Source of the DNA: Treponemataceae bacterium
Lineage (GTDB): Bacteria; Spirochaetota; Spirochaetia; Treponematales; Rectinemataceae
Assembly: GCA_963667725.2 (NCBI GenBank)
Contig: CAXXHO010000005.1
Span: 1,216,001-1,280,000 of the forward strand
Reading direction: 5' to 3'
Length of the DNA: 64,000 nucleotides
A program made the position numbers and the translations under genes. The notes under the pieces were generated by a model. That model was not told where the DNA came from. It was given only the letters and a program-made list of their open reading frames with translations, and did not search any database. Below, one piece after another: positions 52,777-63,753 of the stretch (within the stretch, counting starts at the first letter, position 1; each line of letters starts with the position of its first letter).

Positions 52777-54093
52777 TCATTCCTCTTCCGCGTTGCGGTT
52801 CACTTCGTTGGTTCTGCTCACCATGACCTTGTCTATTCTGTTGCCGTCCATGTCCACTATTTCGATATGAAAGCTGTTCCATTCGCAGGACTCGCCCACT
52901 TTGGGGATCGAGCCCATGCATTCGAGCACGAGGCCGGCCACGGTATCGTAGGCGTTGGCGTCGAATTTTTCCTCGTCCAGCTCCATGGATTCGGCGAACT
53001 CCGCTATGGCGAGGGTGCCGTCCACGAGGAATGAGCCGTCTTCCCGCTCGACGACGCCTGGCACTTCGTCGGAGTCGTTCTGGGCGAGTCCCGCGACGAC
53101 GGATTCCATGAGATCGCTCATCGTTACGAGGCCGGAAACGCCGCCGTATTCGTCGACGATCAAGCCGGTGCTCGCCGCGTTGTCTTTCAGTATGGAGAGA
53201 GCGCGCAAGGCCGATATGGTCTCAGGTATGAGGACGGGCGGGCTCAGGTGGGCCCTGATATCGATGCTGCCTTCGCGCACGAGGGTGGCGAGGGCTTCCC
53301 TGACGTTGAGCATGCCCACGATCCTGTCGAGGTCGCCTTCCATGACGGGCAGGCAGGCGAAGTTGGCGTTCGCCACCAGTTCTTCCTTGGTCGTTTTATT
53401 CCCGTCTTCCAAATCCAGGGCCAGGACGTCGGTGCGCGGCGTCATGAAGGTCGTGACCCGCCTGTCGTCCAGGTTGAGGACGCCCTCCACCATTTCCTTT
53501 TCCGAGTTCTCGAAGATGCCCGATTCCGCGCCCTCGGCTATGAGGATCTTGACTTCATCTTCGGTGACGTCCGGTCCCGGGGCGCGCGCGAAGCCGAGGG
53601 TTCTGACGATGAGCGATGTCGCGCCCGACAGGAATCTGACGAGGGGATCGAAGATGATGCTGATGATGGAGATAGGGCGAATGATGGCCGCGGCGACCTT
53701 CTCGGGGCGAGAGAGGGCAAGGCTTTTCGGCACCAGTTCCCCGAGGATGACAGAGAAGAGCGTGGTGAGGATGACGATGATTACGACCGAAAGCGGTTCG
53801 GCGATGCTGGCGACGAGGGGAAAGCCCGAAAGCCAGAGGCTCATGCTGCGCGATATCGTCGCTCCGCCCACGGCGCCGGTCAGAATGCCGATGAGGGTGA
53901 TCGCCACCTGTATGGCCGACAGATATCTGCCGGGCTGCTCCGCGGCGCGCAGGGCAAGCAGATAGTTTTTTCTGCCCTCGTCCGCCTCGTGGCGGAGTCT
54001 GGCCTTTCGGGAGGATACGATCGCCATTTCCGAGAGAGAAAAAAAGCCGTTGAGGAGAATGAGGGCCAGAATGAGTATGAGTTCAGCGATCAT
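52777..54093 (-). CDS. Hemolysin-family CNNM/CorB protein (DUF21 + CBS + CorC)
   Basis: NGFFSLSEMAIVS, GELVPKSLA, MTPRTD, VDEYGG, DGNRIDKV. Confidence 0.92.
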   Translation of the reverse strand: MIAELILILALILLNGFFSLSEMAIVSSRKARLRHEADEGRKNYLLALRAAEQPGRYLSAIQVAITLIGILTGAVGGATISRSMSLWLSGFPLVASIAEPLSVVIIVILTTLFSVILGELVPKSLALSRPEKVAAAIIRPISIISIIFDPLVRFLSGATSLIVRTLGFARAPGPDVTEDEVKILIAEGAESGIFENSEKEMVEGVLNLDDRRVTTFMTPRTDVLALDLEDGNKTTKEELVANANFACLPVMEGDLDRIVGMLNVREALATLVREGSIDIRAHLSPPVLIPETISALRALSILKDNAASTGLIVDEYGGVSGLVTMSDLMESVVAGLAQNDSDEVPGVVEREDGSFLVDGTLAIAEFAESMELDEEKFDANAYDTVAGLVLECMGSIPKVGESCEWNSFHIEIVDMDGNRIDKVMVSRTNEVNRNAEEE

Positions 54094-54329
54094 GGCAGGC
54101 CTCGAGGCTGTGCTTGGAAGAATATGGCCGGCGCCTCAGCGAGGCGCCGATGTGACTGAAGGGATCGGTTTCCGGAGACGGGGGTTCCGCGGTGTCGGAT
54201 GCGTGTTCGTTCATGGGTCCAGAATACCAAATAATCGAGGCCTCGTCGAGACCGGCTTCGCTATCGACGTCGATAGCGACGACGCTCCCTACCGTAGTGA
54301 AAAATAAAAACTTGTTGTATAGTTCCCGC

Positions 54330-56432
54330 ATGCTGAACCGATTCGCCGTCCTGATCTGCGCCCTGGCCTTCTGCCTGTTGGGCGCATCCGCCCAGAACGT
54401 TGACGCGGCATTTCCCGCTGACGATACCTTCAGGGTCATAGCCGACTCGATCTCCATCGGCAGGGAAGAATTTTCCGCCCGTCTCGACGAGATCCGCGCC
54501 GAAGGACGCGAGCCTCTCGGCCTCGTCCTCGCGGGTGGATCGGCGCGGGCTTACGCTCATATCGGCGTCATCCAGGTGCTTGAAGATGCCGGCATCAGGC
54601 CTGACTTCATCGTCGCCAACTCTATGGGCGCCGTGGTCGGCATGCTTTACGCCGCCGGAGTATCCCCTGGCACGATCGCCCAAATCGTAGGAGCCGTTCC
54701 CCCCGAATTCTATTTCAACCTCGTTCTCCCCACGAAAGGCGGCATAATCAACGCCGATCCCTTTGTCGGCGCCGTAAAGGAAATGGTGGGAGATCTGGAT
54801 CTCTCCGATACTCCGATACCTATCATCGTGACGGGCGAAGACCTGAGGACCAGGCGGCTTGTGGAGCTGTCAGCGGGAGAATTTTCCAAAGCCATGACGA
54901 CAACCTTCGCCATGCCGGCGATTTTCGAACCGGTTCCCTTCGGGGAATTCCTCCTCGTCGACGGCGGATCGACCAACTTGGTGCCGGTCGAGATAGCCGC
55001 GAAGTATTCCTCTCTTCTTATCGTTTCCACCGCCTTCTACAACAAGAGCATGAACTACGGCAATCTTCTGTCCGTGCTCAGCAGGACCTTCGATATCGGG
55101 AAAACGAGATCGGGCATCGAGGCGCTGCTCGCGGTCTCGCCCATCGTCATCAGAAATGATGTCGAAAATATTTCTTACATGCAGTTTTCCAGCCCAGCGG
55201 CCATCATCGAGCGGGGAAGGGAAAGCGCCTTGGCTTCCATCGACGAAATACTCGGCGTACTGCCCGCAACGTCCAAAAATAGGCGGATGCCGCCCGAGCT
55301 GATCGAAGCCAGGGCAAGGTATGACCTCTCAATTCCGCGTACCCTCGCCCGGCTGAGGCGGGGGGCCTTGCCCGACGTTGTTCCTTCGGTGCGATACAAA
55401 CTCAGATACAAGCTTTTTGATATGTTTGAGCGTTCGGCGATGGAGCTGGACAGTCAAATGTACGGCGGGCTGGCGCTGTCGGCGGCGGCCGGCATGGTCA
55501 GAGCTTCGGTTTCCTCGATAATGGGGCTGTCGGGAGACCCCGGGCGGCAGTGGGCGCTTACGATGGGCATGCGGGCCAATCCCCTCGATACCTTTCTCAC
55601 CGAGGCCGAGTTGAGACTTTGGGGCGATTTCAGTTCACTTCCCGCGTTTTTTCTCGAGCCCGACAGCCTCGAATTCCTGGCCGATCTTTCCTGGTCCTCG
55701 AAGGGCGAGGACCTCGTCCTCCGGCCCTCTCTGAGCGCCTCCCTCGATTACGCCCTTGACTCGGGGGCTCTCGGCTGGGAAACAAGGGCCGAAGTGGCTC
55801 TCGACGCGGGACTCGGCGACAGGCCTCTCCTCCAGGGAACCTGGGCGGGGTTTGTGTCGGCAAGAGCGGGCGCCTTTGCCGACACGCTGGCCGAGCCGGC
55901 GGGCTCGCCACGCTATGGTCCCGAAATGACGCTGAAGACGGGCATTGCCTATCTTGGCGGCACCAATTTGGGCGGCGCCGCTTCTGGTAGCGCCAATTCT
56001 GGCGCCGCCAGTCCTGGCGGCGCCGCCTTGAGGGGAAGGGTGACGGGGCGGTTCGATATGTCCGGCAGGGGGCTCTCGCTCGAGCGGGGCGAAGCCTATC
56101 GGGGAAACGCCCTAGCGGGCGCGGCGCCCATCGTCATCGCCGCTAACATGGAACTCGTCTGGCTGGCGAAATCCCTCGAGTTCGACGCGGCCGAGCTATT
56201 CCTCGTCAAGAACATGGAATTGGGTCCATATTTCGACGCCGTCTGGCTTGCGGGCGGCGGCTCCGGTTCAACCCTGAAGCCTGATGCCTTCAGCCTCGGG
56301 CTCAGCTACGGCACTACCCTGAGTTTCGCCGGCTTGACGCCCATCGATCTGTCGCTTTTCCTGGGCTTGGACAATACGGGATATCCGGTTTTCGGCGTCA
56401 GGGCGGGAAGGCTTTTCCCCGCCGTCAAGTGA
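54330..56432 (+). CDS. Exported patatin-like phospholipase with a C-terminal beta-rich domain
   Basis: Signal peptide; LAGGSARAYAHIGV, ANSMGA nucleophile elbow, LVDGG. Confidence 0.82.
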   Translation: MLNRFAVLICALAFCLLGASAQNVDAAFPADDTFRVIADSISIGREEFSARLDEIRAEGREPLGLVLAGGSARAYAHIGVIQVLEDAGIRPDFIVANSMGAVVGMLYAAGVSPGTIAQIVGAVPPEFYFNLVLPTKGGIINADPFVGAVKEMVGDLDLSDTPIPIIVTGEDLRTRRLVELSAGEFSKAMTTTFAMPAIFEPVPFGEFLLVDGGSTNLVPVEIAAKYSSLLIVSTAFYNKSMNYGNLLSVLSRTFDIGKTRSGIEALLAVSPIVIRNDVENISYMQFSSPAAIIERGRESALASIDEILGVLPATSKNRRMPPELIEARARYDLSIPRTLARLRRGALPDVVPSVRYKLRYKLFDMFERSAMELDSQMYGGLALSAAAGMVRASVSSIMGLSGDPGRQWALTMGMRANPLDTFLTEAELRLWGDFSSLPAFFLEPDSLEFLADLSWSSKGEDLVLRPSLSASLDYALDSGALGWETRAEVALDAGLGDRPLLQGTWAGFVSARAGAFADTLAEPAGSPRYGPEMTLKTGIAYLGGTNLGGAASGSANSGAASPGGAALRGRVTGRFDMSGRGLSLERGEAYRGNALAGAAPIVIAANMELVWLAKSLEFDAAELFLVKNMELGPYFDAVWLAGGGSGSTLKPDAFSLGLSYGTTLSFAGLTPIDLSLFLGLDNTGYPVFGVRAGRLFPAVK
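55956..56030 (+). repeat. Degenerate 15-bp tandem repeat, 5 copies, in frame
   Basis: ggcggcaccaatttg/ggcggcgccgcttct/ggtagcgccaattct/ggcgccgccagtcct/ggcggcgccgccttg. Confidence 0.7.
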
Positions 56433-58194
56433 TATTCTCGTCTTCGCCGTAGGCCGCGTCGTTCTGCGTCAGGGGATTCTTGAAGCGCCAGAGCAGAAGG
56501 GCGATAAAGACCAGGTTGATGACGCTGGCCGCCGCGAAAAGGTTCCATTTCGGATTGCCCGAGGCCACCGACCCCACATAGCTGTGAAGCTTCACCCCAA
56601 TGGTGTAAAGCCTGTCGTCGGTGAGAAAAACGAGGGGAACGAGGAAGCCGTTCCAGGCGGAGATGAAGGCCGTCATCATCGCGGCGGCCAGGGCCGGGGC
56701 GCTCAAGGGAGCGATGATCTTCAGCATATAGGCGAGGGGCTTCATGCCCTCGAGCGCGGCTTCCTCCTCATAGCTCGGAGGCAGGCGATCCAGGAAGGCC
56801 TTCAGCGTAAAGAGTGAAAAGGGCAGGGCGTGGAAGATATACACCGTGACGAGCGGGACATAGCCGCCCAGCAAGCCCATAAGCCTGAAGAGAATGAAGA
56901 GCGGAATGAGGGAATGGACGCCGCCCGTCATTCCTAGCGCCTGCAGGAAGGCGAAGGCCTTCGCCGAGCGCCTGGCCGTCGTCCGCGACAGGGCAAGGGC
57001 CGCCGGCAAGGTGAAGATCGGTAACAAGAGGGCTGTGGTCGCCGCTACCAGGAAGGTGTTGAAAAAGTATCGCAGTATTCCCTCTTCACGCAGAATGGTG
57101 GCGTAGGGACGAAGCGAGATGAAACGCGGAAGAAGCCCGTCTATATAGACTGCCGACAGATCCGAGAACGAAAGCCACAGGACAACGTAGATTACGAGAA
57201 CGGCGGAAGCGACGGCGAAAATTCGCGCCGTCCAGCAGGCCGCTTTCCAGGCGAAGGCCGCCGCTTTGCCGCCGATGTTCGGCCGTACCATCCGCTCTTT
57301 CCCTTCCGGCCGCTTTCTGAGGCGAAACCACAGCCCAACCAGCAATATGACGAGCATTCCCACCGCGACGGCGTATGCCGAAGGTATGCCGTAGTCATTT
57401 TCGTTCCTAAAGGCGTCATAGAGAAAAATTTCGAGCGTGGTCGTCGCCCCGACAATATTTTTTTCGGTGATGCCGCCGATAAAGGGCGGTCCTCCGGCCG
57501 TCATCAGGAAGGGCACCTGGAATTCCTTGAACGACCTCACGAAATCGAGAGCCCACATGACGATGAGCGTTGTGCGGGCTTGCGGCGCCCTTATCCATCG
57601 CGCGATCGTCCAGGAATCGGCCCCGTCCATACTGGCGGCTTCTGTCATGCCGCGGTTCACGGCGCGGAGCGACGCGTAGAGGGCAAACACGACAAGGGGA
57701 ATGCTCAGCCATACGTCGACGGCAAGGGCGGCGACAAAACCGGCCGCTGGATCGGTGAGAAGATTCAGCTCTCTCCCCAGCATGACCGAAAGAATCGACT
57801 TTCCGCCGCTGCCGTGGATGATCATCCGCCAGATGGGCACCGAGATGAAGGATGGCACTCCCCAGGGCACGAGAATGGCCGCGAAAACGATCTTGAAAGA
57901 CTTTCCCGCGTCCAGGAGGACGGAAGCCAGGATGAATCCGATGAGAACGGAGAGGCTGGCCGAGAGGAGGGCCCATCCCAGCGTTATGCCCAGGGAAAGA
58001 ACGAATGCCCTGTCCTCGACGAGGGCTCTGAAATTTTCGAGACCGGCCCAGGCGGCCTGGCCGTAGCTGTCGTGGTAGAGGGAACTGACCGCGGCGGTAA
58101 AGAAGGGTAGTATGCCCGCGGCCAGAACGAGAAAGGCGAGAGGAAGGATGGCCAGTTTCGCCGCCCTGGATCCGCCGAGGATGGACGCCTTCAT
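56425..58194 (-). CDS. Fused double ABC permease (MalF-like + MalG-like, CUT1 family)
   Basis: Two EAA loops (TEAASMDGA and EEEAALEG), GLENFRAL, AWNGFL in one 589-aa ORF. Confidence 0.88.
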   Translation of the reverse strand: MKASILGGSRAAKLAILPLAFLVLAAGILPFFTAAVSSLYHDSYGQAAWAGLENFRALVEDRAFVLSLGITLGWALLSASLSVLIGFILASVLLDAGKSFKIVFAAILVPWGVPSFISVPIWRMIIHGSGGKSILSVMLGRELNLLTDPAAGFVAALAVDVWLSIPLVVFALYASLRAVNRGMTEAASMDGADSWTIARWIRAPQARTTLIVMWALDFVRSFKEFQVPFLMTAGGPPFIGGITEKNIVGATTTLEIFLYDAFRNENDYGIPSAYAVAVGMLVILLVGLWFRLRKRPEGKERMVRPNIGGKAAAFAWKAACWTARIFAVASAVLVIYVVLWLSFSDLSAVYIDGLLPRFISLRPYATILREEGILRYFFNTFLVAATTALLLPIFTLPAALALSRTTARRSAKAFAFLQALGMTGGVHSLIPLFILFRLMGLLGGYVPLVTVYIFHALPFSLFTLKAFLDRLPPSYEEEAALEGMKPLAYMLKIIAPLSAPALAAAMMTAFISAWNGFLVPLVFLTDDRLYTIGVKLHSYVGSVASGNPKWNLFAAASVINLVFIALLLWRFKNPLTQNDAAYGEDENIT

Positions 58195-58201
58195 TCCTTC
58201 C

Positions 58202-59629
58202 CTAGAAAACGAGATTGATAGACTGGATCTGCTTTACGTTCTTGATCCCTTCGGGCAACCTGGCGATGTTCTTGTCCCAGACGAGGACGAGGGGGAATTC
58301 GCTGGGATCGAGGCCAGCCCCATCCTTGTACATGGCGAGTATGACTTCGTCGTTGGCGTCCAGTTCGCGCGAATCGAGGGTGATCTTGTAGCCGTCGACG
58401 GCGGTTACCTCGACTTTGTAGCCGGCCTTGGCCGCCGCGCTGTCATAAGCATGGATGCTCGTGTCCTGCTTGTGCGGCTGGTAAGCGGGGTCGTCGGCGT
58501 AGCCCAGCAGAAGGTGGAGGGGGAAGCCGGTGTAGCTGCCGCTTATTCCCTTGCGCTCGAAAACGACTTCCTTCTTGTGGCAGCTCACGCAGGACTGCAC
58601 CGTGGCGCGATCCATCGTTCCGTTCATTTTCCCCCCGTAGGAGACGGCGAAATCCTTGAAGTCCTTCTGTTTCACGATGATGCGCTTGATCATCTTGACC
58701 GAGGTGTGGCCGTCGATGTTGGGATCGTTGGGACCGATTTTCACCGTCCTTATGTAGCCCGGATCCTTGGGGAGCCAGTCGCCGTCCATCCTGAAGGCCA
58801 GTATCCAGGTGCCGTCCGCCTCGTCGAGCACTTGCTTGCCGGAATAGGTCATCTCATAGCCGTCGGTGGCCGCGAAGGTTATGGAATCGTCAGCGGAAAG
58901 ACTCATGAAACGGGCCAGGATAGCCCTGAGGCCCACCCCGCCATAGACATTGGAGTACTTTGTCCCGGCGCTGGTCGTGAAGCTTCCCTTGTTTTCCATA
59001 TATGCCTGATCTTTTTCCAGGTCGGCGAGGGTGTAGGAGGCTTTCACTCCGTTTATATCCAGCTCGAGCGCGAAGGAGGCGGCTTCCGAAACCGCCTTGG
59101 ACGCTGCGAGGCTCGTGGTTATGGAGGCGATCTGCTTGACCCAAAGGCCCTTGGCCGTGTCGCCGACGACCATGGGTCTGTCGAGGGGCTTGCCGGCTTC
59201 GGTATCGGCGAGGATCAGCGCGTCCTGGGCGACATCCTTCGTGGAGAAGGTGGCGGAAAAACCGTCGGCCGCCGAGAGGGTGACTTCATAGCCCTTGGCC
59301 CAGAGTCCGGCGTCGAAGGCATAGGGATGGGAGGAGTCGGAACCGTCGATCATGGCGATAGCGAGGCGGAGGGGAATGCCTGAATAGGTTGTCGCCACGC
59401 CTTTTTTATCCACCGTTTTCTGGACATAATCCTTGCCCGCGGCCTTTATCTTCTGGTAATAGGACTGGGACAGGCTGTCCTTCCTCGCGCCCGCCAGTTC
59501 GATGCTCCAGCCCGTCTCCGCCGCCGAGGCGGCCGATGTCGAGTCCGCCGCTTTCCGCGATACGCATCCGGCGAGAACGAACGCGATGGCGACCGTGATG
59601 GCGAGAATGGTCCTCATTCGTCTAGGCAT
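58202..59629 (-). CDS. Lipoprotein with three molybdopterin-oxidoreductase-like (sulfite oxidase fold) repeats
   Basis: Lipobox LAGC; three repeats YxGxxLxxxx...AxDG[FY]...ILA...G..L...VKxIxxI; CVSCH motif in repeat 3. Confidence 0.75.
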   Translation of the reverse strand: MPRRMRTILAITVAIAFVLAGCVSRKAADSTSAASAAETGWSIELAGARKDSLSQSYYQKIKAAGKDYVQKTVDKKGVATTYSGIPLRLAIAMIDGSDSSHPYAFDAGLWAKGYEVTLSAADGFSATFSTKDVAQDALILADTEAGKPLDRPMVVGDTAKGLWVKQIASITTSLAASKAVSEAASFALELDINGVKASYTLADLEKDQAYMENKGSFTTSAGTKYSNVYGGVGLRAILARFMSLSADDSITFAATDGYEMTYSGKQVLDEADGTWILAFRMDGDWLPKDPGYIRTVKIGPNDPNIDGHTSVKMIKRIIVKQKDFKDFAVSYGGKMNGTMDRATVQSCVSCHKKEVVFERKGISGSYTGFPLHLLLGYADDPAYQPHKQDTSIHAYDSAAAKAGYKVEVTAVDGYKITLDSRELDANDEVILAMYKDGAGLDPSEFPLVLVWDKNIARLPEGIKNVKQIQSINLVF

Positions 59630-59656
59630 GGTGTTGCTCCTTTCGCATATTCATGA

Positions 59657-61189
59657 TTACGGCTTCGAGCCGCCGCTTATGGTTCCCAGGTTGGCGTCGA
59701 TGAGACGGCGCGCTTCCGCGAGGGCCGCGTCCGGCTTCATGCTGCCCGCGAGTATGAATCGAAGAATTTTCCACATAGTGTTTTTATAGGTGCTATAGCC
59801 TGAGCTTGGGGGTATGACGGCGCCTATCTCCGCGCTTCTTGCCAAGATGGCGTGATAGGGGCCGTCGCCTTCCGTTACCTCCCAAGCGTCTGAATTCGCC
59901 GGGAGTTTGGAGAGGGCGGTCGAAAAGCGCTGCTGAACCCCGATGCCGGACAGGTGCTCGAGGAGCCTTCGCGCGGTGACCGGGGATTGGGTGGAGCGCG
60001 TCATCGCGAAGCCTTTGAAATCGAGGAGGGGCGCCATGGGCTTGCCCGTGGACGAAACCACCGGATAGGGCGCGACGCCGAAGTCCAGGCCTATCCGTTC
60101 GAACTCGGGGATGGAATAGGACCCGCTCAGGATCATGGCGATTTTGCCCGAAGCGAAACGCGCCACCATGGCGTCGCGCTCAAGGGGCTCCAGGTAGCCT
60201 CGGTCGATCATCGAGAGAATCCAGGATATGGCCTGTCTGGTTCCACGATCGTCGGGACGGACCCCGCCGTCGGCATCGGCGATGGAAGGTTTTCCGAAGC
60301 CCATGGCTATGGGTAAAAGCCAATACGCAGAATAGACATTCCAGGAAATCGGCGTTCCGCCGCTCCGGCTTATCCGCGCGGCCATGGCTTCCAGATCGTC
60401 GGTCGTCCAGGTCAGGGCGGGCGGAACGGGGACTTGCTTTCTGTCGTAGAAAACCAGCTGCGCATCGAAATAGAAGGGAATCGCCCAACGTCGGCTTTCG
60501 GCGCTGAAGGCTGTCGCCCCATTCTCCACGATATGAGAGACGTCGATTCGATCCAGGGGCTGGAGGGTCTGCGCCGCCACGAGGTCAGGAACGTTGTCCG
60601 ATTGGATCATGAGGAGATCGGGCGTGCGCCCGCCGCCGCGCTGGACGGCCAGAAGCTTGGACCTCGTATCCGGTATGTCCACCGCTCTGACTTTCGCGCC
60701 GGAGAGCGTCGCCCAACGTTGGATTTCCGCCTTGAGTTCGGGGACGCCCTCCCAGGAGAGCCAGATTTCCAGTTCCCGCTCGCTGGCCCGGTCTCCGCTG
60801 ATGCTCACGGAACTGATGGAGGCCACCCTGGCATCCGGCGCGAGCAGGTCCCATCCTCCGGAGGACGATTCGACGATATAGAATCCGGAGAGTCTGTCCG
60901 CGAGGTTGTCTCCTATCCATATTTTTGCCCCGGCCGAGCCGGCGCACTCGATCCTCCAGGCTTCCACGAGGGGGGGAAGCAATTCGGAGATGGCGAGGCC
61001 GCGTTCCATGGAGTTCTTCGAGGGGATGGAATATGAAAGCGCGCGTAGCGCGGCGTCTGAGGGTATGGTTTTTGAGCTGCCGTTAAGGCGCAGATCGAAC
61101 GCCCAGGCAGAGGCGTGAAGCGCGAAGGCGAGGCCTAGGGAGAGAACAACCGTCCGGAAACCAGGTCCCGGCGGGTTTGAGCGAGTCAT
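59657..61189 (-). CDS. Sugar-type (CUT1/MalE-like) ABC substrate-binding protein with an extra N-terminal domain
   Basis: Signal peptide; PDLLMIQSD, LQPLD, WAIPFYFDAQLVFYD, FASGKIAMILSG, DFGVAPYP. Confidence 0.85.
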   Translation of the reverse strand: MTRSNPPGPGFRTVVLSLGLAFALHASAWAFDLRLNGSSKTIPSDAALRALSYSIPSKNSMERGLAISELLPPLVEAWRIECAGSAGAKIWIGDNLADRLSGFYIVESSSGGWDLLAPDARVASISSVSISGDRASERELEIWLSWEGVPELKAEIQRWATLSGAKVRAVDIPDTRSKLLAVQRGGGRTPDLLMIQSDNVPDLVAAQTLQPLDRIDVSHIVENGATAFSAESRRWAIPFYFDAQLVFYDRKQVPVPPALTWTTDDLEAMAARISRSGGTPISWNVYSAYWLLPIAMGFGKPSIADADGGVRPDDRGTRQAISWILSMIDRGYLEPLERDAMVARFASGKIAMILSGSYSIPEFERIGLDFGVAPYPVVSSTGKPMAPLLDFKGFAMTRSTQSPVTARRLLEHLSGIGVQQRFSTALSKLPANSDAWEVTEGDGPYHAILARSAEIGAVIPPSSGYSTYKNTMWKILRFILAGSMKPDAALAEARRLIDANLGTISGGSKP

Positions 61190-61190
61190 T

Positions 61191-61316
61191 ATTCCCCCTT
61201 TTCAAGCATGGAAGGCTGAACCGTTTCCGGCGCAACCCGATGGCTTTTAGTCCATGGACTTCCGAGGCTCATTGTCATGATGCCGCGTATCTTTAGGAGC
61301 TAAGGCTCGAAGGAAT
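61191..61316 (-). ncRNA. Putative molybdenum-cofactor (Moco/Tuco) riboswitch
   Basis: Minus strand AUUCCUUCGAGC...CCUAAAGAU...AUCAUG...GGGUUGCGCCG-GAAA-CGGUUCAGCCUUCCAUGCUUGAAAAGGGGGAAU; the 5' end pairs with the SD, and the 3' block resembles the Moco RNA CCUCCCGUAUUUGGAAAGG element; recognised by eye only. Confidence 0.75.
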
Positions 61317-61326
61317 TCTATGGCTG

Positions 61327-61355
61327 ATTCTATGGCGCCCATTCGCAGGCGTCAA
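61327..61355 (-). promoter_or_regulatory. sigma70 promoter for the riboswitch-ABC operon
   Basis: Minus strand TTGACG-N17-TAGAAT, placing the start site near 61320, just before the RNA motif. Confidence 0.75.
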
Positions 61356-61397: not shown

Positions 61398-61428
61398 AAA
61401 AAAAAAGGCGCCCCGGATGGGCGCCTTT
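61398..61428 (-). terminator. Rho-independent terminator after the outer-membrane protein gene
   Basis: GGCGCCC-cggat-GGGCGCC stem with A9 (U-run on the minus strand). Confidence 0.85.
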
Positions 61429-61461
61429 CGTATCCGATCCGAATCCGATCGGGATCCGACG

Positions 61462-62235: not shown

Positions 62236-62313
62236 ATGAGTTATATTAAAGATTCCTTATGTTTCATGCGAAGCGGCCGGAACAGGCCGCATTACTCAAC
62301 CCTCTCGTACTAG
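62236..62313 (+). CDS. Candidate leader peptide MSYIKDSLCFMRSGRNRPHYSTLSY upstream of metNIQ
   Basis: SD AAAGGA at 62223, TTGACA at 62188, 25 codons containing Cys-Phe-Met, internal hairpin GCGGCC/GGCCGC. Confidence 0.4.
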   Translation: MSYIKDSLCFMRSGRNRPHYSTLSY

Positions 62314-62330
62314 TCCAGACTATTCCCCAT

Positions 62331-63095
62331 TTGACATCGCCAGTTCCTCCCACTAATTCCCCGGCTTTAGCCATAAGGGATATCAGTAAAAGATTCGGTC
62401 CTCACGCGGTTCTGGACGGCGTTTCGCTCTCCATCCCGGCTGGAAGAATTTACGGCATCATCGGACGGAGCGGAGCGGGCAAGACCACCCTCATCAGGAT
62501 CGCCTCGCTGCTCGAGCGCGCCGACGGCGGCGAGATTTTCTATTCCGGGGTTTCAGTATCCGGAGCCAAGGGAAAGGAACTGATAGAGGCGCGCAGAAAA
62601 GCTGGGTTCGTGTTCCAGAACTTCAACCTTTTCTCCTCGAGAACCGTCGCGGGCAATGTGGCTTTTCCCCTGGAAGCGGCCGGCTGGAATAAAACGGCCA
62701 TTCGCGAAAGGGTGGAGGAGCTCGTGGAGCTCGTCGGGCTCTCTGACAAGGCGGACAGGCCGGCCGGCCGGCTTTCGGGAGGCGAGCGTCAGCGCGTCGC
62801 CATCGCCAGGGCTCTCGCTAACAGACCGCAGATACTCTTCTGCGACGAAGCTACCAGCGCTCTGGACCCCGAAACAACGAGGTCCATCCTGGATCTGATC
62901 CAGTCCCTGCGCCAGCGTTTCGGTCTCACCGTCATGATGGTTACTCACCAGATGGAAGTGGTCAGGAGAATCTGCGACGATGTCGCGATCATCTCCGACG
63001 GCTTGATCGTGGAGAGCGGCCCCGTGGCTTCCGTTTTTTCCCGTCCAAGCAGCGAAACCGGACGCCGTCTCGTGGCGGAGGTCAATCATGCGTGA
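62331..63095 (+). CDS. metN: Methionine ABC transporter ATPase (short, no C-terminal NIL domain); start uncertain (62259 or 62331)
   Basis: GIIGRSGAGKTT, FQNFNLFSSRTV, LSGGERQRVAIARAL, CDEATSALDPETT. Confidence 0.88.
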   Translation: MTSPVPPTNSPALAIRDISKRFGPHAVLDGVSLSIPAGRIYGIIGRSGAGKTTLIRIASLLERADGGEIFYSGVSVSGAKGKELIEARRKAGFVFQNFNLFSSRTVAGNVAFPLEAAGWNKTAIRERVEELVELVGLSDKADRPAGRLSGGERQRVAIARALANRPQILFCDEATSALDPETTRSILDLIQSLRQRFGLTVMMVTHQMEVVRRICDDVAIISDGLIVESGPVASVFSRPSSETGRRLVAEVNHA

Positions 63096-63753
63096 AATCT
63101 TTGACCTCATCGCCAGGCCGGTTCTGGAAACCATCCTCATGGTGATCGCGTCCACGACGATCGCTGGACTGTTCGGCGGTTCCATCGGTCTCGCGCTCTA
63201 CTTCATGTCGAACGAAAGGCTTTCCGAACATTCGGGTCAGCTTTCGATCGTGAAGAAAGTCGCCGACCGGGTGATCAACACCCTGCGGTCGTTTCCCTTC
63301 GTCATTCTCATGGTCCTTGTGCTTCCTCTTTCACGCCTCATCGTGGGGACGAGCCTTGGGACGGTGGCGGCCATCGTGCCTCTTTCCATCGCGGCTATGC
63401 CCTTTGTGGCGCGCATCGTCGAATCGTCGTTGGCCGAAATCGATGGCGGCATCCTCGACGCGGCTCTCTCTTCGGGAGCCACGAAGGCCAGAATTCTCTT
63501 CGCCATTCTCGTGCCTGAAGCCCTCCCTTCGCTTATCGCCGGTCTCACGCTCACGATGATCAACCTGGTGGGTTATTCCGCCATGGCAGGGGTCATCGGA
63601 GGGGGCGGTCTCGGCGATCTGGCCATCAGATACGGCTACCAGCGTTTCAGGACCGACATCATGATCGCATCGGTGCTCTCGATCATCATACTCGTCGAGG
63701 GAATCCAGATGACGGGCAACAGGATCACGAGGAATCTGAAGCTCAAGCGCTGA
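63088..63753 (+). CDS. metI: Methionine ABC transporter permease
   Basis: RSFPFVILMV, PFVARIVE, GYSAMAGVIGGGGLGDLAIRYGYQRF. Confidence 0.94.
   Translation: MREIFDLIARPVLETILMVIASTTIAGLFGGSIGLALYFMSNERLSEHSGQLSIVKKVADRVINTLRSFPFVILMVLVLPLSRLIVGTSLGTVAAIVPLSIAAMPFVARIVESSLAEIDGGILDAALSSGATKARILFAILVPEALPSLIAGLTLTMINLVGYSAMAGVIGGGGLGDLAIRYGYQRFRTDIMIASVLSIIILVEGIQMTGNRITRNLKLKR

Follow-up and report, generated by a model that had tools for sequence, protein, structure and literature searches.

Why should an RNA of the molybdenum cofactor (Moco) family precede an ABC importer of the sugar-carrying type? The question is raised by a minus-strand operon within the window, i.e. the whole 64-kb stretch of Treponemataceae DNA that was analyzed here. 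The original prediction, made from sequence alone, placed in this operon a candidate uptake system for molybdenum or tungsten pterin cofactors.

Operon layout and the Moco RNA leader

All the elements proposed for the unit are located in the window, namely an upstream terminator, a TTGACG-N17-TAGAAT promoter, a structured leader resembling the Moco motif, a MalE-like binding protein, a lipoprotein with three predicted sulfite-oxidase-fold-like repeats and a fused MalF/MalG-like permease (Table 1). The hairpin and its T-run end the upstream gene and set the unit apart; the ctRNA and Phe-leader families of Rfam also give weak, below-threshold matches at this hairpin. Only one promoter-like site is found between 56200 and 61600, and as shuffled sequences average 1.5, the consensus match alone is at chance level. 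It is the position of the site, with 3 nt between its end and the aptamer, that carries weight, and this is suggestive. The permease gene shares its final 8 nt with a convergent patatin-like gene (54192–56432), and there is no ATPase gene within the cassette formed by the RNA, substrate-binding protein (SBP), lipoprotein, and permease.

Table 1. Features of the operon and its upstream region, with positions in the window.
Feature	Position	Strand	Characteristics
Intrinsic-terminator-like hairpin with T-run	61403..61429	-	11-bp stem, 7 GC pairs, loop 5
Sigma-70-like promoter TTGACG-N17-TAGAAT	61327..61355	-	10/12 consensus matches
Moco RNA aptamer RF01055, P3-less class	61179..61324	-	54.1 bits, gathering score (GA) 36
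SBP, 510 aa	59657..61189	-	SBP_bac_8/SBP_bac_1, weak MalE
Lipoprotein, 475 aa, three predicted SUOX/PruR-fold repeats	58202..59629	-	Lipobox LAGC, PF00174, Foldseek
Fused MalF-like/MalG-like ABC permease, 589 aa	56425..58194	-	Two BPD_transp_1 domains

The resemblance of the leader to the Moco motif is borne out by a significant covariance-model match that covers the full model (1–135; E = 3.7e-10 for the whole window), RF01055 being the sole Rfam family above threshold across the 64 kb. With the class model R1, the leader scores 113.4 bits, and its RF01055 alignment lacks the P3 hairpin. The first stem does cover the Shine–Dalgarno sequence as predicted: the 3′ strand of P1, GGGGGAA, lies 9 nt upstream of the ATG at 61189 and is the ribosome-binding site of the SBP gene, which would make the leader a translational OFF platform, like the E. 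coli moaA switch.

The same leader recurs with the cassette. The Rfam model detects a Moco RNA in 11/11 diverse loci tested and R1 detects it in 50 of 64; the loci missed are two unrelated archaeal ones and 12 bacterial ones on contigs that stop short of the SBP start, so that the RNA is present in 50/50 loci with a sufficiently long contig. In an alignment fitted to the model, compensatory changes affect 18 of 27 pairs, paired cells reach 90.7% vs 38–49% in slid registers, and none of 500 shuffles matches the observed values. P3 is absent in 49/50 leaders, the P2–P4 linker measures 4–5 nt, and 47/49 leaders have GGRGG or a similar sequence as the 3′ strand of P1, 6–15 nt upstream of the start codon.

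According to Regulski et al. (2008; PMC2408646), P3-less Moco RNAs go with tungsten-cofactor metabolism (17/19 organisms), and the window leader resembles this "Tuco" subclass in its full-length match above the gathering score and its missing P3. What differs is the target, as known members precede oxyanion transporters (mod/tup/wtp), moa/moe genes, or genes for enzymes that use the cofactor, and a CUT1-type importer is not known to be among these targets.

Lipoprotein, binding protein and permease

The lipoprotein carries a signal peptide with an LAGC lipobox and three internal repeats (residues about 40–175, 186–325, and 326–475). Repeats 1 and 3 are the most similar (E = 3.4e-12 over 150 aa), followed by 2 and 3 (E = 7.5e-4) and 1 and 2 (E = 1e-3), and Pfam PF00174 matches once (residues 209–326, 47.5 bits). 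The predicted structure (pLDDT 85) places the repeats in the SUOX/pterin-binding-type fold. Specifically, Foldseek searches give top E-values of about 1e-7 to sulfite oxidases and dehydrogenases, and single repeats align with PruR structures at TM scores of 0.64–0.74 (e.g. 7kom, 0.74; 7kp2, 0.70; 7kos, 0.68; 7rkb, which contains neopterin, 0.66). The best PDB match of the repeat-2 profile is also a PruR (7kos, E = 0.22). As modelled, single repeats come structurally closest to PruR proteins, which are nonenzymatic pterin binders.

In an alignment of 24 lipoproteins, the lipobox Cys is present in 12 and, lipobox aside, C350 is the sole Cys kept across the family. C350/H351 are near-invariant and belong to a CxxCH-like string in 16/24 sequences, the first Cys of which is replaced by Gly in 7/24. 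The hairpin loops that bear the Mo ligand in SUOX enzymes contain no conserved Cys in this alignment, and the signal peptide has just one conserved Arg. Each repeat shares with PruR (Agrobacterium, Vibrio, and Klebsiella; 7kom, 7kp2, 7kos/7kou, and 7rkb) a predicted degenerate SUOX fold of ~140 residues, the missing Mo-ligating Cys and an extracytoplasmic location. PruR is, however, a single domain, whereas the lipoprotein has three in tandem and is lipid-anchored. Furthermore, PruR is encoded in a pruR-dcpA operon and controls a c-di-GMP enzyme, unlike the lipoprotein of this Moco-RNA-controlled importer operon, and it binds small pterins in a pocket that its authors call too short for Moco (PMC11194511).

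The SBP has a signal peptide, a conserved beta-rich N-terminal extension of ~100 residues, and a two-lobe MalE-type fold (model pLDDT 91.7; Foldseek TM 0.81–0.85 to MalE/GacH). The N-terminal half of the permease scores best to MalF and the C-terminal half to MalG/GlcU. None of the SBP and permease family scores comes near its equivalog cut-off (e.g. 61.7 vs 291 for MalE). A UgpC/MalK-type ATPase is encoded apart from the cassette or, in five loci, divergently adjoining it (3/5 typed). As such, the cassette resembles MalEFGK2/CUT1 importers in its SBP fold, its permease halves, and its separately encoded ATPase, and differs from them by the fusion of these halves, the SBP extension, the added lipoprotein, and the lack of sugar-use genes nearby.

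A complex between the lipoprotein and the SBP is predicted with a score of 0.74 (best control, 0.00), a value reached by 116/157 solved complexes and 2/215 mismatched pairs, these counts being approximate because our own alignments were used. The runs share at least 39% of contacts, with partner pLDDT of at least 84. Conservation of the predicted interface shows no excess for the SBP (0.58 vs 0.57 elsewhere) and is marginal for the lipoprotein (0.75 vs 0.66; 632/10000 random sets).

Distribution of the cassette and of cofactor genes

The genomes of 62 bacterial species share the cassette (57 labelled as spirochaetes, four as Thermotogota, and one without a label), and this recurrence of the RNA and gene order exceeds chance. 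No glycoside hydrolase, sugar-catabolic, or other gene family recurs beside it in the 62 loci.

The survey of carriers agrees with the expected link to cofactor biosynthesis, i.e. most lack moaC and moeA and have cofactor-dependent enzymes. Among 50 operon genomes of unstated completeness, in which related carriers do not count as independent, AOR is found in 49, compared with 14 for MoaC and 15 for MoeA_N; both MoaC and MoeA are missing in 34 (the EF-Ts marker is found in 48/50). By comparison, MoaC is present in 72 of 73 operon-free, AOR-positive spirochaete genomes with completeness of at least 90%. Biosynthesis genes are kept in 14–16 of the 50 carriers, so the operon is not limited to auxotrophs; for example, G025 has both the import and biosynthesis routes, with a Moco RNA before the operon and also in its moaA cluster. 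Others keep MoeA without MoaC (G028 and G030) or the reverse (G021). Along the lipoprotein tree, the MoaC label switches 10 times or more, with disagreement between some close pairs that MAG gaps may in part explain.

The source genome (97% complete, eight contigs) encodes six AOR-family (AFOR_N) and two bis-PGD-family (PF00384) proteins. Profile searches of this genome for MoaA_C, MoaC, MoeA_N, MoaE, and MoCF_biosynth give no matches, with controls positive in 11–13 of 14 genomes. Similarly, tblastn with spirochaete MoeA, MoaB, MOSC, and MoaC finds no match, and with MoaA only matches at radical-SAM level. MoaA, MoaC, MoaE, MogA/MoaB, and MoeA are therefore absent by two methods, while MobA-like and MocA-like genes are kept, with scores under curated cut-offs. 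No tungstate/molybdate binding protein is recognized among the top candidates classified, as the sole PBP_like_2 match is PstS and the best SBP_bac_11 match is PhnS2-like.

A candidate importer of metal-bound cofactor

The RNA, the modelled repeat fold, the operon survey, and the moaC/moeA pattern together support the pterin-cofactor reading. We find it probable (roughly 65%) that the operon encodes a riboswitch-repressed salvage importer of a metal-bound tungsten or molybdenum pyranopterin cofactor, likeliest W-MPT/Mo-MPT or a close derivative. The original prediction had allowed for intact Moco/Wco or a precursor; the first is favoured, and neither cPMP nor molybdopterin without its metal is a likely substrate in the source genome given that MoaE, MogA/MoaB, and MoeA are absent. 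Several points count against salvage: the pocket of PruR is described as too short for Moco, the SBP and permease come from sugar-carrying families, some carriers keep biosynthesis genes, the predicted interface is hardly more conserved than its surroundings, the cassette lacks an ATPase gene, W-bis-MPT would have to be assembled without MoeA, and the free cofactor is described as very labile in one review, which gives the protein-bound cofactor as the stable form (PMC9026282); the latter fits a capturing or shielding protein.

Import of a different pterin is unlikely in our view; this could be cPMP, molybdopterin without its metal, a degradation product, or a simple pterin such as neopterin/monapterin, and other enzymes would then have to supply the metal or the later steps. 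PruR, the closest single-domain structural match, does bind simple pterins, and the partial pathways of G028, G030, and G021 could use precursors. However, no known route finishes cPMP or metal-free MPT in the source genome, both MoaC and MoeA are missing from most carriers, and operon presence complements Moco genes specifically. The RNA is also a member of the Moco/Tuco family, and the one in E. coli requires the pathway up to finished Mo-MPT, with MobA dispensable (Regulski et al. 2008, PMC2408646). A role of the lipoprotein as a periplasmic SUOX-type redox enzyme (MsrP/SorA-like), with the transporter serving its substrate or product, would explain the PF00174 match, the top Foldseek E-values, and the near-invariant C350/H351 with its CxxCH-like string. 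We regard this as very improbable, as conserved Cys are missing from the Mo-ligand loops, the first Cys of the string is Gly in part of the family, the signal peptide has just one conserved Arg, and the host cannot make the needed cofactor. To our knowledge, no enzyme is built from three cofactor domains in a row with no redox domain as partner.

We give hardly any credence to an ordinary CUT1 sugar or oligosaccharide importer, in which the lipoprotein would help to bind glycans and the RNA would reflect regulatory cross-talk. The SBP core resembles maltodextrin and acarbose binders, MalF/MalG/GlcU are the top-scoring families for the two halves of the permease, and an own ATPase is missing as in many CUT1 cassettes, but family scores fall far below the equivalog cut-offs, the loci lack recurrent glycoside hydrolases or sugar-catabolic genes, and the Moco RNA is found in every assessable locus across two phyla. 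Moreover, the lipoprotein has a predicted pterin-cofactor fold and cassette presence follows loss of Moco synthesis. Uptake of tungstate or molybdate, free or chelator-bound, for cofactor synthesis is just as improbable. Moco RNAs commonly precede mod/tup/wtp transporters (PMC2408646), and with no TupA/ModA-type binder recognized among the top matches the metal route is otherwise missing. ModABC/TupABC/WtpABC are likewise ABC importers, often under Moco RNA control and supplying the same enzymes, but they have binding proteins of a different class from the MalE-type SBP, and small permeases that are not fused. Their type of import would be useless in a source genome without MoeA, and no oxyanion use is known for a genome also lacking MogA/MoaB, MoaA, MoaC, and MoaE. 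Oxyanion uptake also leaves the three pterin-fold domains unexplained.

For the salvage importer, we envision that the lipoprotein, outside the cytoplasm, would use its three PruR-like domains to capture and shield labile cofactor from neighbouring or dead cells. Its repeat 1 is predicted to dock on the MalE-fold SBP and may pass the ligand on to the fused permease, which would import it with energy from a UgpC/MalK-type ATPase that is shared and encoded at another locus. The cofactor would then be inserted into AOR-family enzymes or, alternatively, tailored by MobA-like/MocA-like nucleotidyltransferases for bis-PGD-type enzymes. When plentiful, it would bind the P3-less RNA, so that P1 forms, the Shine–Dalgarno sequence is buried, and translation of the operon stops; the architecture of this switch is observed, and its ligand and direction are proposed on the model of the moaA RNA of E. 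coli.

A comparable logic governs cobalamin salvage, where a costly, complex cofactor is sensed by a riboswitch that shuts off a BtuFCD-type, SBP-dependent ABC importer. That importer is found in auxotrophs and producers, and importer and biosynthesis may share a regulon; in G025, Moco RNAs likewise precede both the cassette and the moaA cluster. The cassette differs by being of the CUT1 MalEFG type rather than BtuCD type II, by its other RNA and cofactor, and by the additional lipoprotein with three predicted pterin-fold domains.

As anticipated, literature searches turned up no described importer of this type from bacteria. An animal, Caenorhabditis elegans, takes up ready-made Moco from its diet, i.e. 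from other organisms (Warnhoff et al., PMC7849362), and a review describes this as the one case known to depart from the rule that Moco must be made de novo, by a mechanism that is not understood (PMC9026282). If the salvage reading is correct, this bacterium would take up ready-made cofactor, which has been thought impossible for bacteria.

Organization of the operon and its Moco RNA leader

The minus-strand unit singled out by the original prediction, in which a terminator, a promoter and a structured leader precede genes for a MalE-like binding protein (SBP), a lipoprotein and a fused permease, is laid out in the table below; its three genes are separated by gaps of 8 and 28 nt. The terminator-like hairpin upstream of the unit is present, and so is the proposed promoter sequence. 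However, the match of the latter to the consensus is at chance level (1 found vs. 1.5 expected from shuffles), and it is the location of this site, 3 nt before the RNA, that makes it a suggestive promoter candidate. Contigs from library X6, which we guessed to be cDNA, span the operon and both flanks alike and are thus uninformative on transcription. The genes on either side are unrelated: a methionine ABC transporter diverges from the unit, and a patatin-like gene and a CNNM/CorC transporter lie on the permease side, where the patatin-like gene and the permease gene share 8 nt at their ends.

Features of the operon and of related loci (G000, genome of the window, with contigs C3, C5 and C7; G025, another operon-bearing genome; L numbers, extracted loci)
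Feature	Position	Strand	Remarks
Terminator-like hairpin	window 61429–61403	−	Strong; ends upstream gene
Promoter-like site	window 61355–61327	−	TTGACG-N17-TAGAAT
Moco RNA of the operon	window 61179–61324	−	RF01055, 54.1 bits (gathering score 36)
SBP gene	window 59657–61189	−	510 aa; SBP_bac_8/SBP_bac_1, weak MalE
SBP N-terminal extension	window 60779–61102		Residues about 30–137
Lipoprotein gene	window 58202–59629	−	475 aa; lipobox LAGC; single PF00174 match (residues 209–326)
Lipoprotein residues 347–351	window 58572–58586		C347, C350 and H351
Permease gene	window 56425–58194	−	589 aa; two BPD_transp_1 domains
Patatin-like phospholipase and CNNM/CorC transporter	window 52777–56432		Unrelated
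MetN/MetI-type methionine ABC transporter	window 62259–63753	+	Unrelated
P3-bearing Moco RNA	L014:12707–12867 = G000:C5:974706–974866	−	52.6 bits
Ferredoxin-like 4Fe-4S protein gene	L014:11957–12670	−
YdhV-type AOR gene	L014:9818–11938	−
Weak P3-less Moco-like RNA	L015:9133–9269 = G000:C3:227131–227269	−	Rfam 32.1 bits (below threshold); class model 32.6 bits, E 1e-7
NAD-dependent aldehyde dehydrogenase gene	L015:7358–9208	−	PF00171; putative start codon
MobA-like gene	L108:3690–4655	+	G000 contig C3
MocA/YgfJ-like gene	L109:3845–4642	+	G000 contig C3
SUOX-like gene	L016:3851–4471	+	G000 contig C7; 206 aa; PF00174 121.7 bits
Divergent MalK-sized ATPase genes	L032:3080–4201, L033:2866–3981, L037:3045–4160, L070:2881–4119, L071:1–1017	−	Five loci, one subclade
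Moco RNA of G025	L090:4346–4467	−	68.2 bits

A total of 152 lipoprotein relatives are found at E ≤ 0.001 among the 8000 candidates scored; where a name is given, it is either "molybdopterin-dependent oxidoreductase" or hypothetical, and the source is spirochaete MAGs. With one genome per species, the set comprises 64 loci, of which 57 are labeled as spirochaete, 4 as Thermotogota and 2 as Bathyarchaeota, with 1 unlabeled. Within the reach of its contig, each of the 62 bacterial loci keeps the order RNA-SBP-lipoprotein-permease. The two Bathyarchaeota loci (L079 and L080; 23% identity in the repeat-2/3 region) have no SBP, permease or RNA and represent a different system. Beyond the cassette, no gene family is widely recurrent; the commonest neighbor families are opposite-strand ABC ATPases (16 loci), patatin (10) and CNNM (7), and no moa genes occur near the operon in these loci. 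Flanking patatin, CNNM, methionine-ABC and MCP genes were rejected as functional partners, as they reflect local synteny only.

The leader had been said to resemble the Moco RNA motif, and the RF01055 covariance model agrees: the match is complete (model 1–135) and is the sole Rfam family above threshold in the 64 kb. The same model scores 52–87 bits in 11 of 11 related loci. A covariance model of this RNA class (R1), built from the window RNA and 11 Rfam-confirmed relatives, finds the RNA in 50 of the 64 loci, the 14 misses being 12 bacterial loci whose contig ends inside or before the SBP gene and the two unrelated archaeal loci, i.e. every assessable bacterial locus (50/50) carries the RNA, on the same strand as the SBP gene and directly ahead of it. 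Across the 50 sequences, both partners vary in 18 of 27 base pairs, and pairing holds in 90.7% of cells compared with 38–49% in slid registers, with 0 of 500 shuffles reaching the observed values; these results are favored by an alignment fitted to the model.

The Rfam alignment of the window RNA has deletions at the P3 positions, and 49 of 50 operon leaders have a P2–P4 linker of only 4–5 nt, so that none of these 49 has a P3. Moco RNAs without P3 (58 of 176) have been reported, with tungsten-cofactor genes in 17 of 19 organisms that carry P3-less RNAs, a correlation only (Regulski et al. 2008, PMC2408646). The tungsten cofactor is the putative ligand of the P3-less class. In the window leader, the 3′ strand of P1 (GGGGGAA) lies 9 nt ahead of the ATG, and the first stem does cover the SD as anticipated. 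The P1 3′ strand is rich in purines (GGRGG or close variants) and starts 6–15 nt before the start codon in 47 of the 49 leaders with an identifiable start. Because this strand is the ribosome-binding site in nearly all leaders, its design reads as a conserved translational OFF platform, in which ligand-stabilized P1 would bury the ribosome-binding site.

Lipoprotein, binding protein and permease

The lipoprotein carries an internal triplication, clearest between repeats 1 and 3 (24% identity over 150 aa, E 3.4e-12) and weaker between repeats 2 and 3 (E 7.5e-4) and repeats 1 and 2 (E 1e-3); the PF00174 match to repeat 2 scores 47.5 bits. Its predicted structure is confident (mean pLDDT 85) and matches sulfite oxidases and dehydrogenases in Foldseek at E of about 1e-7 (including 2a9a, 2blf, 1sox, and 1xdq). 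Triplication and model together uphold the proposed three sulfite-oxidase-fold-like repeats, and the Foldseek matches point to a molybdopterin-binding-type (SUOX) fold in the predicted repeats.

Compared repeat by repeat, the model also aligns with PruR (7kom, TM 0.74; 7kp2, 0.70; 7kos, 0.68; and the neopterin complex 7rkb, 0.66), with TM values spanning 0.64–0.74 over about 150 aligned columns in these structures. PruR 7kos is the best PDB sequence match of the repeat-2 profile as well, a weak one (E 0.22). PruR is described as a periplasmic, non-enzymatic, degenerate SUOX fold with Trp in place of the Mo-ligating Cys (PMC11194511). The lipoprotein resembles it in having a small degenerate SUOX fold without the Mo-Cys that is secreted, here with a lipoprotein signal. 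By contrast, it has three tandem domains and lies inside an ABC operon, whereas PruR is a single domain encoded in the pruR-dcpA operon; no GGDEF/EAL gene recurs among the neighbors of the operon-bearing loci.

In an alignment of 24 sequences, Cys columns present in at least 6 are limited to the lipobox Cys, C347 (16/24), and C350 (23/24), and a conserved Mo-ligating Cys on the beta-hairpin was not found. C347 and C350 sit in helix 341–350 of repeat 3, off the hairpin loops, which read DKKGVA, TTSAGT, and ERKGIS; the position of these loops relative to the enzymes' Cys is presumed, with weak PDB sequence alignments. Mapping the SUOX Mo-Cys by sequence was abandoned because whole-protein and repeat-2 profiles reach only E 0.08–1.8 against the PDB. 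The canonical SUOX active site is absent from this family. Directly after C350 comes a near-invariant H351, and one may ask whether C350/H351 is a metal or cofactor ligand. A heme-c site, suggested by the CxxCH-like "CVSCH" of repeat 3, was rejected as a trait of the whole family, as its first Cys (C347) is Gly in 7 of 24 sequences.

The SBP is MalE-like, as proposed, in its predicted structure too (pLDDT 91.7). Its core has the MalE-type (cluster B) fold, with Foldseek E of about 1e-27 and TM 0.81–0.85 (3jzj, 6ffl, 2gha, and 6dts), and its structural matches include T. maritima MalE, GacH, and E. coli MBP. N-terminal to this core, the SBP is extended by about 100 conserved, beta-rich residues that have no usable match in the protein atlas; alignment with the lipoprotein profile (hhalign E 0.063, probability <1%) suggests only weakly that they resemble the first part of a repeat.

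A predicted SBP–lipoprotein complex scores 0.74 vs. 0.00 for the best control. Of 157 solved complexes, 116 score as high, as do 2 of 215 mismatched pairs; since our own alignments were used, both counts are approximate. The runs share at least 39% of contacts, with a partner pLDDT of at least 84, and place SBP residues 75–78, 131–137, 210–214, and 398–404, with a contribution from the N-terminal extension, against repeat 1 residues 76, 115–129, and 159–161. Interface conservation is not above the rest for the SBP (0.58 vs. 0.57) and marginally higher for the lipoprotein (0.75 vs. 0.66; 632 of 10,000 random sets). The model suggests that the SBP docks on repeat 1.

The permease proves to be a MalF/MalG-like fusion, as first described: the best NCBIfam matches of its halves are MalF (44–288) and GlcU/MalG (334–567), all below the equivalog cut-offs. 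None of the 62 bacterial loci has an ATPase gene within the cassette; CUT1 cassettes usually rely on a shared ATPase. The genome of the window encodes a stand-alone UgpC-subfamily ATPase (486 bits) with no adjoining permease genes. In addition, the MalK-sized ATPase of five loci is transcribed divergently, just upstream of the riboswitch, and the three that were typed belong to the UgpC/MalK subfamily (about 499 bits). We regard this divergent MalK-sized protein as a candidate for the cognate ATPase of the importer.

Cofactor genes and AOR enzymes in operon-bearing genomes

The assembly of the window's genome (4.22 Mb, 8 contigs, 97% complete, and 6.3% contamination) has 0 matches to the Pfam models MoaA_C, MoaC, MoeA_N, MoaE, and MoCF_biosynth (MogA/MoaB/MoeA), which match in 11–13 of 14 control genomes. 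PF06463 was dropped as a MoaA test, since spirochaete MoaA proteins score under its cut-off, and tblastn was used instead, with MoeA, MoaB, MOSC, MoaC, and MoaA queries from two operon-bearing spirochaetes that have the pathway. The first four find nothing in this genome at E ≤ 0.01, and MoaA finds only 24–30% matches to radical SAM cores. The best MoaA candidate, a 492-aa radical SAM/SPASM protein, was rejected at 76–82 bits vs. MoaA cut-offs of 284–325.

The same genome encodes six proteins of the AOR family of tungsten/molybdenum enzymes, one of them YdhV-type (PRK09849, 1054.9 bits), and two bis-PGD-family enzymes, one DmsA/BisC-like and the other Fdh/PhsA-like with a DmsB-like partner. 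It also has a MobA-like protein, whose six NCBIfam matches are without exception to MobA models (at most 76 bits, against a cut-off of 152), and a MocA/YgfJ-like protein (120 bits, cut-off 186). Orthologues of both occur in MoaC-negative operon-bearing genomes ("carriers"), at 70% (G001) and 35% (G019) for the former and 65% (G003), 59% (G002), and 37% (G005) for the latter. Import at the level of the metal-pterin predicts that only the last tailoring steps are kept, as in this genome. A tungstate or molybdate binder is probably missing here, judging from the classified top matches: the sole PBP_like_2 protein is PstS, and the best SBP_bac_11 match is PhnS2-like. Separately, a SUOX-like gene (SoxC/SorA/MsrP-like, 60–73 bits) is found on a contig of 123 kb, amid numerous short ORFs of the same strand.

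We extended the search to 50 operon genomes taken from the 62 bacterial loci; the other 12, mostly short contigs, were left out. AFOR_N is found in 49 of the 50, with 1–11 matches each, while MoaC and MoeA_N exceed the cut-off in 14 and 15, respectively. Most carriers thus have no such synthesis genes: both are missing in 34 of 50, and 33 of these 34 have an AOR. EF-Ts, a universal marker, turns up in 48 of the 50, which means that assembly gaps cannot explain the losses overall. As a control, we used an even sample of 300 Spirochaetota genomes of at least 90% completeness, none of which carries the operon, so that it serves as a negative set only. Within it, 73 operon-free genomes have AFOR_N and 72 of these have MoaC; in the remaining one, AFOR_N itself matches only weakly. 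Having AOR while lacking Moco synthesis is therefore frequent among operon-bearing genomes and almost never seen in operon-free ones, in a comparison where related genomes are non-independent and carrier completeness is not given.

On the lipoprotein tree, the MoaC label changes at least 10 times and does not cluster, and a few close pairs disagree; such disagreement may reflect repeated loss or assembly gaps. Some groups are MoaC-negative throughout, i.e. the clade of the window (12/12), Thermotogota (4/4), and two spirochaete trios (3/3 each). The pathway is kept in 14–16 carriers, so the operon also serves producers. B12 importers likewise serve producers.

The window's genome has two further RF01055 matches, and carries both P3-bearing and P3-less RNA classes. 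The P3-bearing RNA stands ahead of the genes for the ferredoxin-like protein and the YdhV-type AOR, with about 35 nt between the aptamer and its SD; the platform of this leader therefore differs from that of the importer. The cofactor of E. coli YdhV is Mo-bis-MPT, and this would agree with the P3/Moco RNA class of the AOR leader. The weak P3-less RNA lies before an aldehyde dehydrogenase gene, and this leader may spare cofactor by switching between AOR and an enzyme that needs none. In G025, a carrier that keeps the pathway, a Moco RNA precedes moaA-moaC-MOSC-moaB-moeA; no Moco RNA is over threshold in the corresponding stretch (L091) of genome G027.

Candidate substrates and biological meaning

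Given the observed RNA, platform, folds, conservation and gene content, we infer binding and transport of finished cofactor, and its salvage is the best-supported role of the operon. The lipoprotein would capture the cofactor and pass it to the MalE-fold SBP, and the fused permease, powered by a shared ATPase, would import it. The cofactor would then enter AOR-type enzymes directly or after MobA/MocA tailoring, and would repress the operon via the Moco RNA.

The main rival, import of another pterin or of a precursor, may apply in carriers with partial pathways (G021, G028, and G030); the window's genome disfavors it, having no known enzyme to complete cPMP or metal-free MPT. Three further explanations each leave most observations unexplained. 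A sugar importer would share the CUT1 (MalEFGK-type) features of the operon, namely the MalE-type SBP fold and the MalF-like and MalG-like permease domains; no glycoside hydrolases or recurrent sugar-use genes occur near the operon in the carrier loci, and homologues accompanied by glycoside hydrolases and lacking the Moco RNA, which the original prediction had named as counterevidence to itself, are not seen among the assessable bacterial loci, in either respect. An oxyanion importer would be expected to use a binder like ModA, TupA, or WtpA; these are of the SBP_bac_11/PBP_like_2 class, whereas the SBP of the operon is SBP_bac_8/SBP_bac_1 with a MalE fold. A periplasmic SUOX enzyme would share the fold of the repeats, in a family without the canonical active site.

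Salvage of finished cofactor can be placed in a wider frame, to which we give slightly better than even odds (about 0.55): finished W/Mo pyranopterin cofactor is traded like a vitamin in anoxic communities, the cassette is its first dedicated bacterial importer, the lipoprotein is a SUOX pocket turned reversible carrier, and Spirochaetota and Thermotogota lineages thereby drop MoaA-to-MoeA and keep up to eleven AOR-family matches per genome, plus only the MobA/MocA tailoring steps. The logic is the same as in B12 salvage. The parts of the operon belong to known families; if the cofactor is confirmed as its substrate, this would be a novelty in bacterial physiology. We found no bacterial Moco/Wco importer described in open-access literature and bioRxiv, and a 2021 review states that de novo synthesis is required in all Moco-using cells, with C. 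elegans as the sole known exception (PMC9026282). If true, a bacterial importer would overturn this de novo-only rule for prokaryotes, and Moco/Wco would join traded cofactors such as B12 and thiamine. The lipoprotein would be a natural cofactor carrier, useful for stabilizing or delivering Moco, and the operon a test bed for the putative specificity of P3-less Moco RNAs for their ligand.

Annotation places relatives of the window's organism in the Rectinemataceae, of which a cultured member reportedly recycles dead biomass in anoxic groundwater, in a paper whose available part mentions molybdate as an inhibitor only (PMC6052044). Such a lifestyle would suit cofactor scavenging. If the reading is true, metabolic reconstructions in which such genomes count as having no active molybdo- or tungstoenzymes would need correction, and it would be clear how fermenters of groundwater, sediments and digesters can operate numerous tungsten enzymes although they lack the pathway.
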